A DNA stretch of 64,000 nt, from assembly GCF_013315695.1 (NCBI RefSeq), contig NZ_CP054353.1; one strand, 5' to 3'. A model generated the notes under the pieces. It saw nothing but the letters and a program-made list of their open reading frames with translations, made no database searches and was not told the origin of the DNA. Numbering within the stretch: the first letter of the stretch is position 1; the number at the start of each line of letters is the position of its first letter. This DNA is from Escherichia coli (GTDB lineage Bacteria > Pseudomonadota > Gammaproteobacteria > Enterobacterales > Enterobacteriaceae). The translations under genes and the position numbers were made by a program. Below are positions 38,294 through 45,589 of the stretch, piece after piece.

Positions 38294-38573
38294 GCGTCTT
38301 GTCTCCCCGGTCTTTCTGCTGGGCGAGAAAATCGCGGCACAGGCCTTTGGCTTTCAGCTCATTCAGCACAAAATCAATATCTTCATTCAGGTAGCTGAAA
38401 ATATGCGGAATGTAGAGCTGATGCAGGCCGGAGAGTTCACGGTGAATCAAATCACCCCCAACAAACTGGGATACGGCGCTGGCGCGGTTGAGCTTATGGT
38501 AAGCCTCAATGCTGAGGTGTTCACGGGCGTCATGACGCGCTGAGACGGTCTGAGGGGCTTTTTTATTACGCAC
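38286..38573 (-). CDS. putative epsilon-like helper-derepression protein (95 aa from GTG start)
   Basis: 95-codon frame from GTG at 38573 overlapping next gene; position upstream of orf151/alpha as in P4. Confidence 0.4.
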
Positions 38574-39161
38574 GGGACACCTCCACCACCGGCAGACGGG
38601 CAGCAAGGGAGAGCACATAGTCACGGACAAGGGAACGGCGGGCACTGCGTTCATCACCGGCGACGGTGCGAAGCATGCAGATACGGGGATGACGGTCTGC
38701 GCGACGGACAGCCGCAAACACAAAGACAAATTCAGGGTGTGAAGGGGTAAGGGTTGTAGCCATGATGGCAGCCTCCGTTAGATAGCAGGTTACGCTATCG
38801 CCGGAGTTTCCACGCTCGATGGCGATAGCCCAGACGGGGGTGGAAATACCGGCTCTAACGGATACCGGCCAGCCCGGAGGCTGCCCCGCCTGAGCTACCA
38901 TTGACTCTGCGGCATAATGAGCGGACGCGGGCAGGATGCACGGAGTTCCATCTGCTCGACTGACCACACACCACACCATAATCTGGCGCTCTGTGGCGTT
39001 GATTGCGACACAAAAAAAGACGCATGGCGCGTCATATGTCGCCGTTAGATTGCTCGGGTTTCCACGCCCGGCTGCCGATTTTGCGACAGCGGAAAAACTA
39101 TATCCGCAAATGCCGGAAAAAGGCAAGCCAGAAAAAGGGACTTTTTGCAGAACAGGCATCA

Positions 39162-39380
39162 TCATGCGTCGTACCCCCGTTTGCGTCCGGCAATGCGGCC
39201 GGCCATCCATGCGGTGACTTCAGAGTGCAGCCAGGCCACATTTTTACCGCCAAGACTCACCTGCGGCGGAAATTCCCCCTTACGGATGAGTTCGTAGATG
39301 GTCGAGCGTGACAGGCCGCACAGGTGCATCACTTCCGGAAGACGTAAAAAACGCTCCTGTGTGATGTCCGGCAGCGGCAT
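39162..39380 (-). CDS. AlpA/Vis-family excisionase-like transcriptional regulator
   Basis: product from [32 protein letters not shown] (AlpA-type HTH). Confidence 0.75.
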
Positions 39381-39704
39381 CAGTGGCGTCACAGGGGCGG
39401 GAGACGGGGAAGAAAAAACAGCTTGCATCGGGCTACCTCGTTAATGTCCATACAGCACCGGATAAGTCCGTCCGGCTTCGGGTAGCGCTTTATTTTGTGA
39501 ATATTTTCGGCAGACGCAACAGGGGGGATTTGTTCCGGCAGCCTTACAATGGCTGTGCATTTTTTGTACATCAGCGCCAGATAGCTTTAAAACGCTCTGG
39601 AAGGAGCTGGAAAAAATTATAGTGAAATACAAATTGTTTTTTCTTATTTATTTCAGTGAATTAATAAAAATAAAAAGTAATAAACAGCACAAAAAGCCCA
39701 TCAA

Positions 39705-39815
39705 CGGGTGAACAGTGGTGAACAGACGGTGAACAGTCATTACTGCGATTGTTCACCCTTTAACTTACTGTATTACTTATCTTTTTTCTTATTGTGAACA
39801 GAGGTGAACAGTAAA
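39705..39815. repeat. second iteron cluster (GTGAACAG/TGTTCACC repeats), P4 ori/crr-type
   Basis: gggtgaacagtggtgaacagacggtgaacag ... ttgttcaccc ... gtgaacagaggtgaacag; about 4.9 kb from first cluster. Confidence 0.6.
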
Positions 39816-41285: not shown

Positions 41286-41858
41286 ATGGAAAGCACAGCC
41301 TTACAGCAGGCCTTTGACACCTGTCAGAATAACAAAGCAGCATGGCTGCAACGCAAAAATGAGCTGGCTGCGGCCGAACAGGAATATCTGCGGCTTCTGT
41401 CAGGAGAAGGCAGAAACGTCAGTCGCCTGGACGAATTACGCAATATTATCGAAGTCAGAAAATGGCAGGTGAATCAGGCCGCCGGTCGTTATATTCGTTC
41501 GCATGAAGCCGTTCAGCACATCAGCATCCGCGACCGGCTGAATGATTTTATGCTGCAGCACGGCACAGCACTGGCGGCCGCACTGGCACCGGAGCTGATG
41601 GGCTACAGTGAGCTGACGGCCATTGCCCGAAACTGTGCCATACAGCGTGCCACAGATGCCCTGCGTGAAGCCCTCCTGTCCTGGCTTGCGAAGGGTGAAA
41701 AAATTAATTATTCCGCACAGGATAGCGACATTTTAACGACCATCGGATTCAGGCCTGACGCGGCTTCGGTGGATGACAGCCGTGAAAAATTCACCCCTGC
41801 GCAGAACATGATTTTTTCGCGTAAAAGTGCGCAACTGGCATCACGTCAGTCTGTGTAA
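41286..41858 (+). CDS. psu: Psu-like polarity suppression / capsid decoration protein
   Basis: 190-aa ORF following delta. Confidence 0.75.
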   Translation: MESTALQQAFDTCQNNKAAWLQRKNELAAAEQEYLRLLSGEGRNVSRLDELRNIIEVRKWQVNQAAGRYIRSHEAVQHISIRDRLNDFMLQHGTALAAALAPELMGYSELTAIARNCAIQRATDALREALLSWLAKGEKINYSAQDSDILTTIGFRPDAASVDDSREKFTPAQNMIFSRKSAQLASRQSV

Positions 41859-42074: not shown

Positions 42075-44033
42075 TTAAAATCCATCAAGTAGCTGATTGA
42101 TACCATTGCTCTCATCACAATTTATTTGCTCTAACTCAAATAAAGCACTGTCGTACTTTATTTGGGGAGTGTTTTCAAATGACAATAAAGATTCGATTAG
42201 TCTTATTTCTTTATCTTTATTTATGTCTTTAAGTGAGTCTAAAGTTAAATTGAATTTAACTTCGGGTTGTTTTCCTACTTCCATCATGATATTTGACTCC
42301 AACTCTGGATCAGTATTGAAGAATCGATGTGTCTTATGGAAATAACTAGGTTTTCTTGATTTTAAAATACTTAGTATATCCGACTTGATAGTGCTTTCCC
42401 GTGCTATCACAAGCCAATGGTTGGCAACCCCTGTGATGGTGGTAATGATGTGGGAGCCATTTTCACTTAGTTCATTAAAGGCTCTTAAGTCACCCTTGAA
42501 AAAATCATTTAGCAACTCATTTTCTTTATCTTTATCAAAAAGGTAAATTATTGAATTGCCGGCTAATGATATTTCAGCCTTGGTTTTTATAGTATCGCAA
42601 TTAAATTGCGCGGTCTCATTTTTTAATTCTTCGTAAGATGATTTTAAGTCTAAAAGCAAGCATTTTATTATACTTGATCTGAAAGATGAGTAATCAATAT
42701 CAGCACAAAGTGAAAATAAATTTCTGTGACGAATGGATTCAGGGCTGTAATATAGCTTTGTTAATATTTCTTTTTGGCGTTCTTTTGTGTCACGACAGAT
42801 AAACATAGCTGCAAAATATTCCATTAATGATTTGTGTGACCAACGAATAATAGCGCCTTCTTTGACAAATAATGGAACGGTTTCAATTAAGTCCTGAATA
42901 AAAAGAGATGGTGAAGTTGATATTCCGGGAATTTTTGAAATGATATTTTGCAATGTTATTTGCAGATCGTCTTTCGTAAACTCAATTTTACCTCCGTCTT
43001 TCAAACACCAAAAACCTAATCTCCTTAAGACCTGATGGAAGTCAGTGGAGTCTAGCTTAGAAAATTTTTCTCTAACATAACCAAGTTCTTTAGTTAAATC
43101 ATGAGACTCATACAAAGCGTCAAATACTTGGCTATAAAATAACTCTCTTTTTCTTGGTATTATCGGTTTGAATTTATATGCACAAAATAATAATGAAACA
43201 TAAAGAGGTGTGGATAAAAATTCATTTAGATTATGACCATTCTCCAGTCGTAATCCTTTAATTAATTGAGATGAAATAGGGCCACGTCCATCATATCGAC
43301 GTAATAGATCATACGCTTGATTCGTTTCTAATGGGTTGATTTTAAATCTTGAGAAACCATGTAGTTCTGATAAGAAATTATCATGACGAGAAGTTATAAT
43401 TATTTTGCTTTCTGAGAAATTATTAGCAAAGGTACTTAGTAAATTTACGATCTTGGATTTGAGTTGTTGTGGGATTTCATCTATGCCATCGAAAAGATAA
43501 ATAAAAGGGATTTTTTTGAGGCAGTTGTCTGAAATGTCTTCTCCTAAACCAAGTTGATGTTTCACCTGTAGCGCAAAATCATAATCTTTAGCACGTCGTA
43601 ATTCAATGTATATTGGAATGTATTCCTTATTAGCGATGCAATCTAAAGCAATTCTTTTCATTAGGGTGGACTTACCCATTCCTGCTGAGTCAGTGATTAA
43701 TATATGATTGAAATTATCTAATAAATCTGCATTGTCTTTTATTAGGCATGTGTATGGTTTTTTTTCATTATCGTAATAAATGCTCATTGGCTCATAAATA
43801 TCTAGAAGCTCTACTGGAGTATTTTGAAAAGCTAAGGTATTCACAAGGGAGCATTGCCCTTTCACATTTGATAGGAAACGTTCAAGATTTTTATTCAAGA
43901 AGCGTGCTGCATGTACATCTATTAAATAATTACGAACACTACTTTCTATGATAGGTAATATTTTATTCTTAATAACCTCCTTTGCCCATGGAAGGGATGC
44001 AGAGACTAATACATCAAGAGATACTGGTTGCAT
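42075..44033 (-). CDS. NACHT-type STAND NTPase (bacterial NLR-like), candidate anti-phage protein
   Basis: 652-aa ORF; Walker A DSAGMGKST, Walker B IYLFDGIDEI, sensor-1 KIIITSR; visibly AT-rich; starts 3 nt after int stop. Confidence 0.7.
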   Translation of the reverse strand: MQPVSLDVLVSASLPWAKEVIKNKILPIIESSVRNYLIDVHAARFLNKNLERFLSNVKGQCSLVNTLAFQNTPVELLDIYEPMSIYYDNEKKPYTCLIKDNADLLDNFNHILITDSAGMGKSTLMKRIALDCIANKEYIPIYIELRRAKDYDFALQVKHQLGLGEDISDNCLKKIPFIYLFDGIDEIPQQLKSKIVNLLSTFANNFSESKIIITSRHDNFLSELHGFSRFKINPLETNQAYDLLRRYDGRGPISSQLIKGLRLENGHNLNEFLSTPLYVSLLFCAYKFKPIIPRKRELFYSQVFDALYESHDLTKELGYVREKFSKLDSTDFHQVLRRLGFWCLKDGGKIEFTKDDLQITLQNIISKIPGISTSPSLFIQDLIETVPLFVKEGAIIRWSHKSLMEYFAAMFICRDTKERQKEILTKLYYSPESIRHRNLFSLCADIDYSSFRSSIIKCLLLDLKSSYEELKNETAQFNCDTIKTKAEISLAGNSIIYLFDKDKENELLNDFFKGDLRAFNELSENGSHIITTITGVANHWLVIARESTIKSDILSILKSRKPSYFHKTHRFFNTDPELESNIMMEVGKQPEVKFNLTLDSLKDINKDKEIRLIESLLSFENTPQIKYDSALFELEQINCDESNGINQLLDGF

Positions 44034-44036
44034 GAA

Positions 44037-45245
44037 TTATACCTTATTTTCTACGTTTAAATTTTTGACCTTAAGTCCCCACCAGTTCATTAAATCGATT
44101 CTGGTATGTAAATATGTTGAGCGGTTATATGCTCTTCTAACTTCGTTTTTGTCAGAGTGCGCTAAAGCAGCTTCAATGACATCTGGGTTAAAACCTCTTT
44201 CATTCATGGCTGTACTTGCTATTGAACGTAGACCATGAGCAACCAGCTTCCCGCCATAACCAATACGTTTTAAAGCAGCATTAGCAGTTTGGCTATTCAT
44301 TGGCTGTTTTGGGTCATTTCTACTGGGAAAAACATGTTCACGATGAGCACTGATTGGTTTCATTACCTCCAGAATCTCTATTGCCTGAGGTGATAAAGGA
44401 ACAATGTGTTCCCGCTTAGCTTTCATCCGTTCGGCTGGAATAGTCCAGAGCTTTGCGTCAAGATCGATCTCTGCCCAACGAGCACCGGAAGCTTCAGAAG
44501 GGCGCACAAGGGTCAGAAGCTGCCACTCAATTAGACAGCGAGTCGAAACAGAGAGGTTCGACATCACCAAAGAGCGCATGAGTTTTGGTAATTCTTCAGG
44601 TCGTAGCGTTGGCATGTGTTGCTTTTTGGGTTTCTCAAATGCCATACCAATACCAGATGCCGGGTTTGCATCAATCAGGCCAGTGTTGACGGCGTAGATC
44701 ATGATTTCGTTAATACGCTGCACCAGTCGACGTACAGTCTCTAGCGCCCCACGTGCTTTGATTGGCTCAAGGGTTTCAACTAGTGTTCGGGCTTTGATTT
44801 GCTGGACAGGGATCTCCCCGATGACAGGGAATACGTCTTTTTCCAGTGACCGCCATATATCTTTAGCGTAATCGGGTGTAACGCTTTTGCTTTTGAGCTG
44901 GAACCAGTTAGCGGCGACCGTTGAAAAAATACTGTCCAGAGCGATTTGCTGCTGTTCCTCTGCAACTTCGGCCTGAATTTGCGGGTCAATTCCGTTGGCT
45001 AACAAAGCAAGGTAATCCGCTCTTAACCGTCGAGCATCAGCAAGTGAAAGGGCGGGGAAAGCACCAAGCCCCATCATTGTCCGCTGTTTTGTTGCTGGAC
45101 GTTGATAACGGAAACGCCACAACTTCTTACCGTTCGTTTTAACGAGCAGAAAAAGACCATCGCCATCATGTAACGTTAGATCCTTTTCTAACGCTCTAGC
45201 GCGCAGAACTTCTGTGCTGGTCAGGGGGCGTGTCGTTCTTGCCAC
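44037..45245 (-). CDS. P4-type tyrosine integrase
   Basis: 402-aa ORF; conserved R...HxxR...Y catalytic pattern near C-terminus (AHGLRSIAST, Y in RRAYNRSTY); adjacent to ssrA 3' fragment. Confidence 0.9.
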   Translation of the reverse strand: MARTTRPLTSTEVLRARALEKDLTLHDGDGLFLLVKTNGKKLWRFRYQRPATKQRTMMGLGAFPALSLADARRLRADYLALLANGIDPQIQAEVAEEQQQIALDSIFSTVAANWFQLKSKSVTPDYAKDIWRSLEKDVFPVIGEIPVQQIKARTLVETLEPIKARGALETVRRLVQRINEIMIYAVNTGLIDANPASGIGMAFEKPKKQHMPTLRPEELPKLMRSLVMSNLSVSTRCLIEWQLLTLVRPSEASGARWAEIDLDAKLWTIPAERMKAKREHIVPLSPQAIEILEVMKPISAHREHVFPSRNDPKQPMNSQTANAALKRIGYGGKLVAHGLRSIASTAMNERGFNPDVIEAALAHSDKNEVRRAYNRSTYLHTRIDLMNWWGLKVKNLNVENKV

Positions 45246-45429: not shown

Positions 45430-45474
45430 TGGTGGAGCTGGCGGGAGTTGAACCCGCGTCCGAAATTCCTACAT
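45430..45474 (-). other. ssrA: 45-nt copy of the ssrA (tmRNA) 3' end: att core at junction of the two prophages
   Basis: reverse complement reads ATGTAGGAATTTCGGACGCGGGTTCAACTCCCGCCAGCTCCACCA (tmRNA T-arm and acceptor with CCA); upstream tmRNA body absent. Confidence 0.7.
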
Positions 45475-45589
45475 ACCATTTTCACTATAACAAAAACATT
45501 AACTTGCGTTTAAAATCATCAAGTTAGTATTATCTTATGTTTGTCCGTTTTACTCATTTTTAATGCTCTGTCGCCAATCTGTCGCCACA

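Follow-up and report, generated by a model that had tools for sequence, protein, structure and literature searches.

A likely P4-type satellite immunity region in Escherichia coli with a predicted specificity unlike that of P4

The RNA-based immunity of the satellite phage P4 has been textbook biology since the 1990s, and precursors of the C4 RNA family are known as substrates of RNase P. The retronphage phiR73 is also a P4-like satellite with an immunity specificity unlike that of P4. In the work of Sabbattini et al. on phiR73 immunity from 1996 (Virology 216:389), the complementarity of the seq sites is reportedly kept while the sequence differs. The element described here lacks a retron. 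In P4, a constitutive promoter is located inside eta; interactions between RNAs at CI and seqA soon terminate its transcript, which is processed to yield CI (PMC10111431). Read-through allows translation of Kil, a truncated form; translation of full-length eta starts from transcripts of the upstream late promoter only and is coupled to the alpA homologue, and translation of eta prevents termination (PMC10111431).

Two further groups of systems are closely related. The immI regions of the phages P1 and P7 encode an RNA of the same Rfam family (c4) with two exposed specificity sequences and with target pairs located upstream and downstream (a1/b1 and a2/b2). As at our locus, the downstream target covers the ribosome-binding site of an Icd-like ORF, and an antirepressor-type gene is next (ant in these phages, epsilon here). 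There, c4 controls icd and the phage antirepressor ant, whereas satellite replication and derepression of the helper would be concerned here. To our knowledge, P1 has neither an eta frame nor the coupling to vis. The record of phage D6 shows about 70% DNA similarity over the C4-icd region, where an Icd-like protein is annotated. The second group is represented by IsrK of Gifsy-1, published as a structural homologue of P4 seqA; IsrK-like elements correspond to seqA and C4 to the CI RNA of P4 (PMC3632133, PMC4825925). The leader at our locus shares with IsrK the full-length covariance model, a pair of hairpins, and a terminator formed by a hairpin and a U-run. Gifsy-1 IsrK trans-activates the translation of orf45-anrP; in contrast, these genes are absent here, and C4, kil and epsilon are found instead.

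The locus analyzed in this study lies in a 64-kb stretch of E. coli DNA, the whole of which is referred to as the window and provides the coordinates used throughout. A preliminary description had proposed a candidate RNA-based immunity region between vis and an epsilon-like gene. Its boundaries were found to be right: on the minus strand, the end of vis is located at 39162 and the start of the epsilon-like gene at 38573.

39162-39428, minus strand: vis (P4 ORF88), AlpA-family excisionase/regulator of 88 aa (Pfam PF05930 Phage_AlpA, E 7.3e-21)
38566-39165, minus strand: immunity region, aligned with phage P4 without gaps at 96.1% identity
38286-38573, minus strand: epsilon-like helper derepression gene of 95 aa (Pfam PF25738 Derepression, E 8.4e-51), corresponding to P4 epsilon

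An alignment with P4, suggested in the same description, showed that the region is conserved. The minus strand of positions 38500-39500 is 96.1% identical to positions 8102-9102 of P4 X51522 over 1001 bases without a gap, and P4 coordinates are obtained by subtracting 30398 from the window coordinates. Beyond the epsilon-like gene follow orf151, orf106 (DUF5375), and the gene for the 777-aa alpha primase-helicase. This order of vis, immunity region, epsilon, orf151, orf106 and alpha is that of P4, in which it belongs to the left operon. By analogy, the epsilon-like gene would be the first downstream gene under control of the immunity switch.

The high identity to P4, an Rfam C4-family RNA, and an IsrK-like leader bear out the proposal of a P4-type RNA immunity region. 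With a probability of about 0.9, we consider the stretch to be the immunity region of a P4-type satellite prophage on the minus strand, with a predicted specificity unlike that of P4. Operon position, CI RNA, targets on both sides of it, and nested kil and eta were all found as in the P4 immunity system. Common to both regions are the place between vis and epsilon, promoter, terminator, CI fold, a target spacing of 16 and 31 nt, kil, and eta; the difference lies in both specificity sequences and is matched in seqA, CI and seqC. Hence, the element is part of the P4 immunity system, yet is predicted from its sequence to be outside the P4 immunity type. The kind of system is already known, and what is new is the specificity allele. 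Among 5426 complete E. coli genomes, 1253 carry similar DNA, with up to 4 loci in one genome, and the identity is 99% or more in 42 records.

The promoter and the two RNA elements were assigned to the following positions:

39097-39126, minus strand: PLE-like, sigma-70-like promoter (TTGCCT, 18-nt spacer, TATAGT), from a promoter scan
39013-39090, minus strand: IsrK-like leader RNA carrying seqA (Rfam RF01394, 72.5 bits)
39012-39033, minus strand: intrinsic terminator GACGCG-CCA-UGCGUC followed by U7, from a terminator scan
38818-38905, minus strand: CI RNA, C4 antisense RNA family (Rfam RF01695, 76.2 bits)
38854-38861, minus strand: CI specificity sequence 2 (CCGUUAGA), exposed by the hairpin 2 loop; complement of site 2 in both seqA and seqC
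38840-38846, minus strand: CI specificity sequence 1 (UUUCCAC, the seqB core) in a single-stranded junction, complementary to the repeated motif

The promoter is located inside the eta frame, shortly before the leader. At the position of its -10 hexamer, the P4 record X02534 carries the annotation "consensus -10"; in relatives, this hexamer is conserved and reads TATAGT or TACAGT. The leader matched isrK (RF01394) over model positions 1-77 of 77 with 72.5 bits at a gathering score of 50; an overlapping match to c4-a1b1 (RF03163) at 39051-39103 stayed just below the gathering score (45.8 versus 46.7 bits). RNA folding, also suggested beforehand, set the two RNAs apart. The CI RNA folded at -48.1 kcal/mol (z -4.37), whereas the minimum-energy fold of the leader was not the Rfam isrK structure and had an ordinary stability (z -0.84). 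No obvious antiterminator was seen in this leader fold. Because the minimum-energy fold is unremarkable, the leader call rests on the covariance model and on the conservation of the stems, which are 99.7-100% paired in 41 sequences. The terminator hairpin, which we take to be t1 of the P4 literature, is 100% paired in relatives and shows one compensatory GC-to-CG change.

Leader and CI RNA are separated by 107 nt. The match of the latter to RF01695 (76.2 bits, gathering score 45, E 1.9e-14) covers model positions 1-87 of 87. In its fold, a closing stem of 17 bp encloses two hairpins and a single-stranded junction; a CCA is located directly 3' of this stem. In the 41 sequences the CI stems are 100% paired, and the 3 compensatory pairs are all located in the long stem. 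We infer the leader and CI RNAs together with their processing and their ends.

Both specificity sequences of the CI RNA have complementary sites in seqA and seqC:

39059-39065, minus strand: seqA site 1 (GUGGAAA), presented by the hairpin 2 loop of the leader and pairing with the CI junction; motif copy at 39058-39067
39042-39049, minus strand: seqA site 2 (UCUAACGG), pairing with the loop of CI hairpin 2
38807-38813, minus strand: seqC site 1 (GUGGAAA), just 3' of CI; motif copy at 38806-38815
38775-38782, minus strand: seqC site 2 (UCUAACGG), overlapping the kil Shine-Dalgarno sequence GGAGG at 38772-38776

The preliminary description had noticed a recurring motif at about 38808 and 39055. 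This motif is real, with GTTTCCACGC found exactly at 38806-38815 and 39058-39067. These are the only two exact copies in the 64-kb window, 252 bp apart on either side of an RNA gene, where a calculation for a 10-mer on both strands of 64 kb gives an expectation of about 0.1. If one mismatch is allowed, the window contains 7 copies versus 4.7 +/- 2.1 by chance; as there is no excess, only the exact pair is informative. The idea that the copies are seq-like targets was supported, since they are the seqA and seqC sites for the CI junction UUUCCAC and show strong covariation across relatives.

The predicted pairing with CI comprises 7 + 8 bp at each target, and the gap between site 1 and site 2 is 16 nt in seqA and 31 nt in seqC. 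As is typical of the downstream target in the C4 family, seqC site 2 overlaps the ribosome-binding site of the Icd-like ORF. The GGAGG is separated by 8 nt from the kil ATG at 38763, and GGAG is invariant in the alignment of relatives. In relatives, seqC and the kil ATG are 30 or 27 nt apart; 28 nt were found only in the damaged locus L041. A hairpin GAUAGC/GCUAUC located between seqC site 1 and the ribosome-binding site of kil does fold in the window (z -2.4) and is 80.9% paired in the alignment, partly owing to gaps; it is not claimed here.

Ungapped alignment with P4 places most of the substitutions in the pairing sites, where they are matched in CI, seqA and seqC. Both CI sequences and all four target sites thus differ from those of P4:

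Site 1 in seqA and seqC: GUGGAAA here, GUGAGAA in P4
CI junction: UUUCCAC here, UUCUCAC in P4
Site 2 in seqA and seqC: CUAACGG here, UCACAGG in P4
CI loop: CCGUUAG here, CCUGUGA in P4

The change amounts to 2 nt in site 1 (GGAA for GAGA) and to five positions in site 2. For the CI RNA of the window, the following duplex energies were calculated:

seqA site 1: -17.9 kcal/mol with its own target, -13.2 kcal/mol with the P4 target
seqA site 2: -12.2 kcal/mol with its own target, -4.2 kcal/mol with the P4 target
seqC site 1: -11.5 kcal/mol with its own target, -5.0 kcal/mol with the P4 target
seqC site 2: -16.3 kcal/mol with its own target, -7.9 kcal/mol with the P4 target

Duplexes with the P4 targets are weaker by 4.7-8.4 kcal/mol per site. 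Since the compensatory changes are present in all three copies (CI, seqA and seqC), heteroimmunity to P4 is predicted; judged by the duplex energies alone, the immunity specificity probably differs from that of P4.

A counterpoint to heteroimmunity comes from site 1, which has undergone a swap of 2 nt only and for which the cross-duplex with P4 seqA still reaches -13.2 kcal/mol.

Related loci were collected via the epsilon protein (57 P4-like loci) and via the conserved C4 core (120 loci), and 41 distinct P4-like regions formed the alignment used for covariation (A2). In these 41 regions, 99.0% of the cells of the seqA:CI pairing and 99.3% of those of the CI:seqC pairing are paired. Shuffled columns gave 77.7% in both cases, and partners slid by 1-3 columns gave 41-52% and 37-49%, respectively. 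Both pairings contain compensatory double changes in 12 of 15 pairs, with a total of 144 cells for either pairing. These are distributed over all four sites: seqA site 1 (99.7% paired, double changes in 6 of 7 pairs), seqA site 2 (98.5%, 6 of 8), seqC site 1 (100%, 6 of 7), and seqC site 2 (98.8%, 6 of 8). Within the RNAs, the stems are 97.7% paired, and compensatory changes occur in the long stem of CI, in leader hairpin 1, and in the terminator.

Two nested coding units share this DNA:

38566-38763, minus strand: kil, 198 bases, 65-aa Icd-like protein (NCBIfam NF033153 phage_ICD_like, E 1.6e-21)
38566-39165, minus strand: eta frame of 199 codons, in frame with kil by translation, spanning the promoter, both RNA elements and all targets

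kil is the first translated gene downstream of PLE. The NF033153 match covers its residues 12-59 and all 48 profile positions, a GGAGG ribosome-binding site is present, and its stop overlaps the start of epsilon. The eta frame starts with the ATG at 39165, or comprises 214 codons if counted from an upstream ATG, and its start overlaps the vis stop as ATGA (GCATGATGATG). Of 56 related loci, 55 have this frame open over 184-225 codons, despite indels of 9, 12 and 45 nt. A second reading frame is open or closed depending on the locus, with 14 to 208 codons. Substitution steps per site at codon positions 1, 2 and 3 were as follows:

vis: 0.48, 0.38, 1.42
kil: 0.38, 0.22, 0.95
epsilon: 0.46, 0.45, 1.11
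eta-specific spacer, outside all RNA-model matches and predicted pairing sites: 1.31, 1.11, 1.26

The third position is thus in excess by 2.4-4.3-fold in vis, kil and epsilon, whereas the codon-position test revealed no such excess in any of the eta-specific segments upstream of kil. As the frame is open without codon-position bias, eta seems to be under selection to stay open and not for the amino acid sequence of its protein. The interval had initially been called non-coding, which is true insofar as there is no protein signature upstream of kil, and not true of the last 198 bases (kil) and of the eta frame. The view that the 214-aa frame does not look protein-like is similarly supported upstream of kil by the even distribution of substitutions over codon positions, and fails for kil, which lies inside this frame that is open in 55 of 56 relatives. 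A conserved translated ORF had been named as an observation refuting an RNA region. This is a false alternative, because the RNA elements of P4 share their DNA with translated eta and kil (PMC10111431).

The openness of the frame is also an argument for regarding the region as simply protein-coding, with a 199-aa "host cell division inhibitor Icd-like protein", a 137-aa "cI transcriptional repressor", or an "Ash family" protein as its functional product. Public annotation follows this line: PGAP places a 199-aa "Icd-like protein" and no ncRNA over the whole interval (identical region, one E. coli genome inspected), the P4 record lists a 137-aa "cI" product, and the RefSeq P4 record lists a "transcriptional repressor". 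Moreover, Pfam PF10554 (Phage_ASH) matches residues 22-146 of the eta frame with E 1.3e-28. This match spans the isrK and C4 RNA elements, and the codon-position test gave no sign of selection for a protein in the PF10554 region. Because there is no eta-specific third-position excess, it follows that the Phage_ASH match largely reflects the conservation of two RNA elements. The Icd-like profile reaches only residues 146-193 of the frame, substitutions upstream of kil are distributed evenly over codon positions, unlike those in vis, kil and epsilon, and compensatory changes connect sites separated by as much as about 200 nt, which coding does not explain. In the literature, CI is treated as an RNA and eta as a frame that prevents termination (PMC10111431). 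The codon-position test and the short Icd-like match led us to discard the 199-aa, 137-aa and Ash proteins as the functional product, and a purely protein-coding region appears extremely improbable.

An action of the leader itself, either in trans on the longer read-through transcript, whose structure it would open so that downstream genes are translated, as described for IsrK of Salmonella Gifsy-1, or by titration of the CI RNA, would be compatible with the full-length isrK match of 72.5 bits and with the intrinsic terminator, which would release a 78-nt RNA. The mechanism has been published for IsrK (PMC4825925), and IsrK-like elements of P4-like prophages were required in a TraDIS analysis of S. 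Typhi (PMC3632133). A released leader has both seqA sub-sites and could bind CI. The genes orf45-anrP do not follow downstream, however, where C4 RNA and kil are located instead, and the covariation indicates CI as the partner of seqA; we therefore consider this mode of action unlikely. Very unlikely is a decaying cryptic prophage whose immunity region is an inert relic and resembles P4 through recent descent only. The element is chromosomal, many P4-like elements are cryptic, and 96% identity to P4 could last for a while without selection. However, promoter, terminator, CI stems, the four perfect pairings, kil, eta, epsilon, orf151, orf106 and alpha are all intact. Selection is required for differences from P4 to be coordinated, as they are here, over three sites, and the same allele was found again in other genomes. 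Truly damaged relatives (L041 and L021) look different: L041 combines a site-2 mismatch with an eta frame broken by a frameshift, and L021 has a site-2 defect.

For the P4-type immunity region, a working model can be proposed largely by analogy with P4. In the lysogen, PLE would be constitutive and its transcript would be processed into a stable CI RNA. This RNA would pair with seqA and seqC on nascent PLE transcripts, which may both raise termination at the leader terminator and block translation of kil by occlusion of its ribosome-binding site. Transcription would thereby end before epsilon, orf151, orf106 and alpha, and the satellite would remain quiescent. Transcripts from the upstream late promoter would carry vis, and ribosomes may enter eta via the ATGA overlap; by crossing the whole eta frame, they would override termination. 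One further element may contribute to termination:

38607-38814, minus strand: C-rich, G-poor stretch of the transcript, candidate Rho-loading region (C minus G +8 to +14 per 78 nt)

Upstream of this stretch, C minus G is about 0 per 78 nt. A role as a Rho-loading region is plausible, and we assume it to be comparable to timm of P4.

To cover the diversity of specificities, all loci were pooled into a wider set of 135 scorable distinct regions, using a pairing scan that tolerates G-U. All four pairings are complete in 115 of these, and 12 more are off only by a 1-nt register shift of the extraction. Random non-cognate combinations of CI and targets resulted in complete pairing in only 5 out of 1293 trials. 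The 135 regions represent 41 nominal CI types, built from about 7 junction and about 21 loop alleles that are freely combined. The CI type of the window (UUUCCAC + CCGUUAGA) was found again in L039 and in L036, the latter with an identical immunity region. In L042, seqA is non-cognate while CI and seqC are cognate with each other, and this locus looks like a recombinant (chimera).

The immunity specificity of these satellites is thus highly polymorphic and modular, which bears on the coexistence of several P4-like satellites in one host. The specificity allele predicts which satellites an element excludes. Satellites of the P4 kind have been described as carrying anti-phage defence cargo. It can be speculated, at slightly less than even odds in our estimation, that P4-like satellites carry a two-site combinatorial RNA "address", each combination being faithfully repeated in seqA and seqC, that is reassorted by recombination into many mutually non-immune classes, and that eta is kept purely as a ribosome track. 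If so, several satellites could co-reside and compete in one cell, and the Pfam Phage_ASH family would largely be the translation of two RNA genes. The main value of our analysis lies in the right interpretation of the locus, as public annotation describes the DNA of this RNA switch poorly. In a single isolate, two loci were found in the same genome (L116 and L117); this pair, an anecdote with n=1, differs at site 2 only.

In the public records for the related locus L003 and for phage P4 (X51522), the DNA of the immunity region is annotated as protein only. The PGAP call is a 199-aa 'host cell division inhibitor Icd-like protein' without an ncRNA feature, and the P4 records still contain a 137-aa CDS named 'cI' or 'transcriptional repressor'. 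The isrK-like and C4 RNA elements fall within the region spanned by the match to Pfam PF10554 Phage_ASH (residues 22-146). The immunity region, its annotated counterparts and the frame used as a control are as follows.

38566-39165 (-), immunity region with annotated CDS (L003, 6336-6935; P4 X51522, 8168-8584)
38286-38729 (-), epsilon frame extended upstream

The upstream-extended epsilon frame served as a control for the openness of eta, the 199-codon frame covering the whole immunity region. For approximately 202 codons, reaching back into the CI gene, the epsilon frame is free of stops in P4 and in many relatives. The window has a closed extension, with 34 codons spanning the C4 core, and other loci show lengths between 14 and 208 codons. 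By contrast with this frame, eta is the only one consistently kept open.

Several relatives carry aberrant immunity regions. In L042 (IMGVR_UViG_2698536560_000011) the seqA alleles are GAGA and CUAACGG, and CI and seqC share GGAA and UCACAGG. The seqC of this locus is thus fully cognate to CI, and its seqA is non-cognate at both sub-sites. This immunity region is an apparent recombinant. In the IMG/VR loci L041 and L021 the CI loop CCUAUGAC is mismatched to site 2 of seqC. L041 additionally has a broken eta frame of 108 codons and a seqC-to-kil distance of 28 nt instead of the usual 30 or 27 nt. Both loci are probably decaying copies.

Two P4-like elements, L116 and L117, derive from one source, IMG isolate genome 2744054990. 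They have the CI junction allele CUGCAAA in common and differ in the CI loop allele (CCAAUAAG versus CCUUGAAG), a single case that fits the co-residence of heteroimmune satellites.

The conserved C4 core was also found in larger phage contigs of 23-70 kb from IMG/VR (L084, L094, L104, L111, L148 and L166), with hairpin-2 loops that measure 10, 11 or 15 nt rather than 12 nt. Judged by sequence, these contigs are carriers of C4-type RNAs outside P4-like satellites.

Three genes follow one another towards one end of the element.

41286-41858, psu
42075-44033 (-), gene of a 652-aa protein
44037-45245, integrase

The 652-aa protein is a 'NACHT domain-containing protein' according to the annotation of the identical locus in another E. 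coli genome. Its position between psu and integrase matches the hotspot of anti-phage systems described for P4-like satellites (Rousset et al., PMC9122126). An IS1 located between the NACHT gene and the integrase in that other genome is absent from this position in the window. Adjoining the integrase is a sub-threshold match to the tmRNA model (45430-45522 (-); 33.5 bits, gathering score 47); ARAGORN found no tmRNA gene that is intact. The match may stem from a piece of a tmRNA gene, left over or duplicated at an attachment site. The opposite side of the element adjoins the ypjA/EhaD autotransporter gene (29689-34362).

At 39690-39745, between vis and sid, GGTGAACAG is present in three close copies, together with an inverted TGTTCACC; in the P4 record, ori repeats are annotated in this interval. 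Downstream of alpha (about 34660-35000), the same peptide-like string occurs in the translations of two ORFs. This points to a direct repeat of about 120 bp, which could correspond to the crr region of P4.
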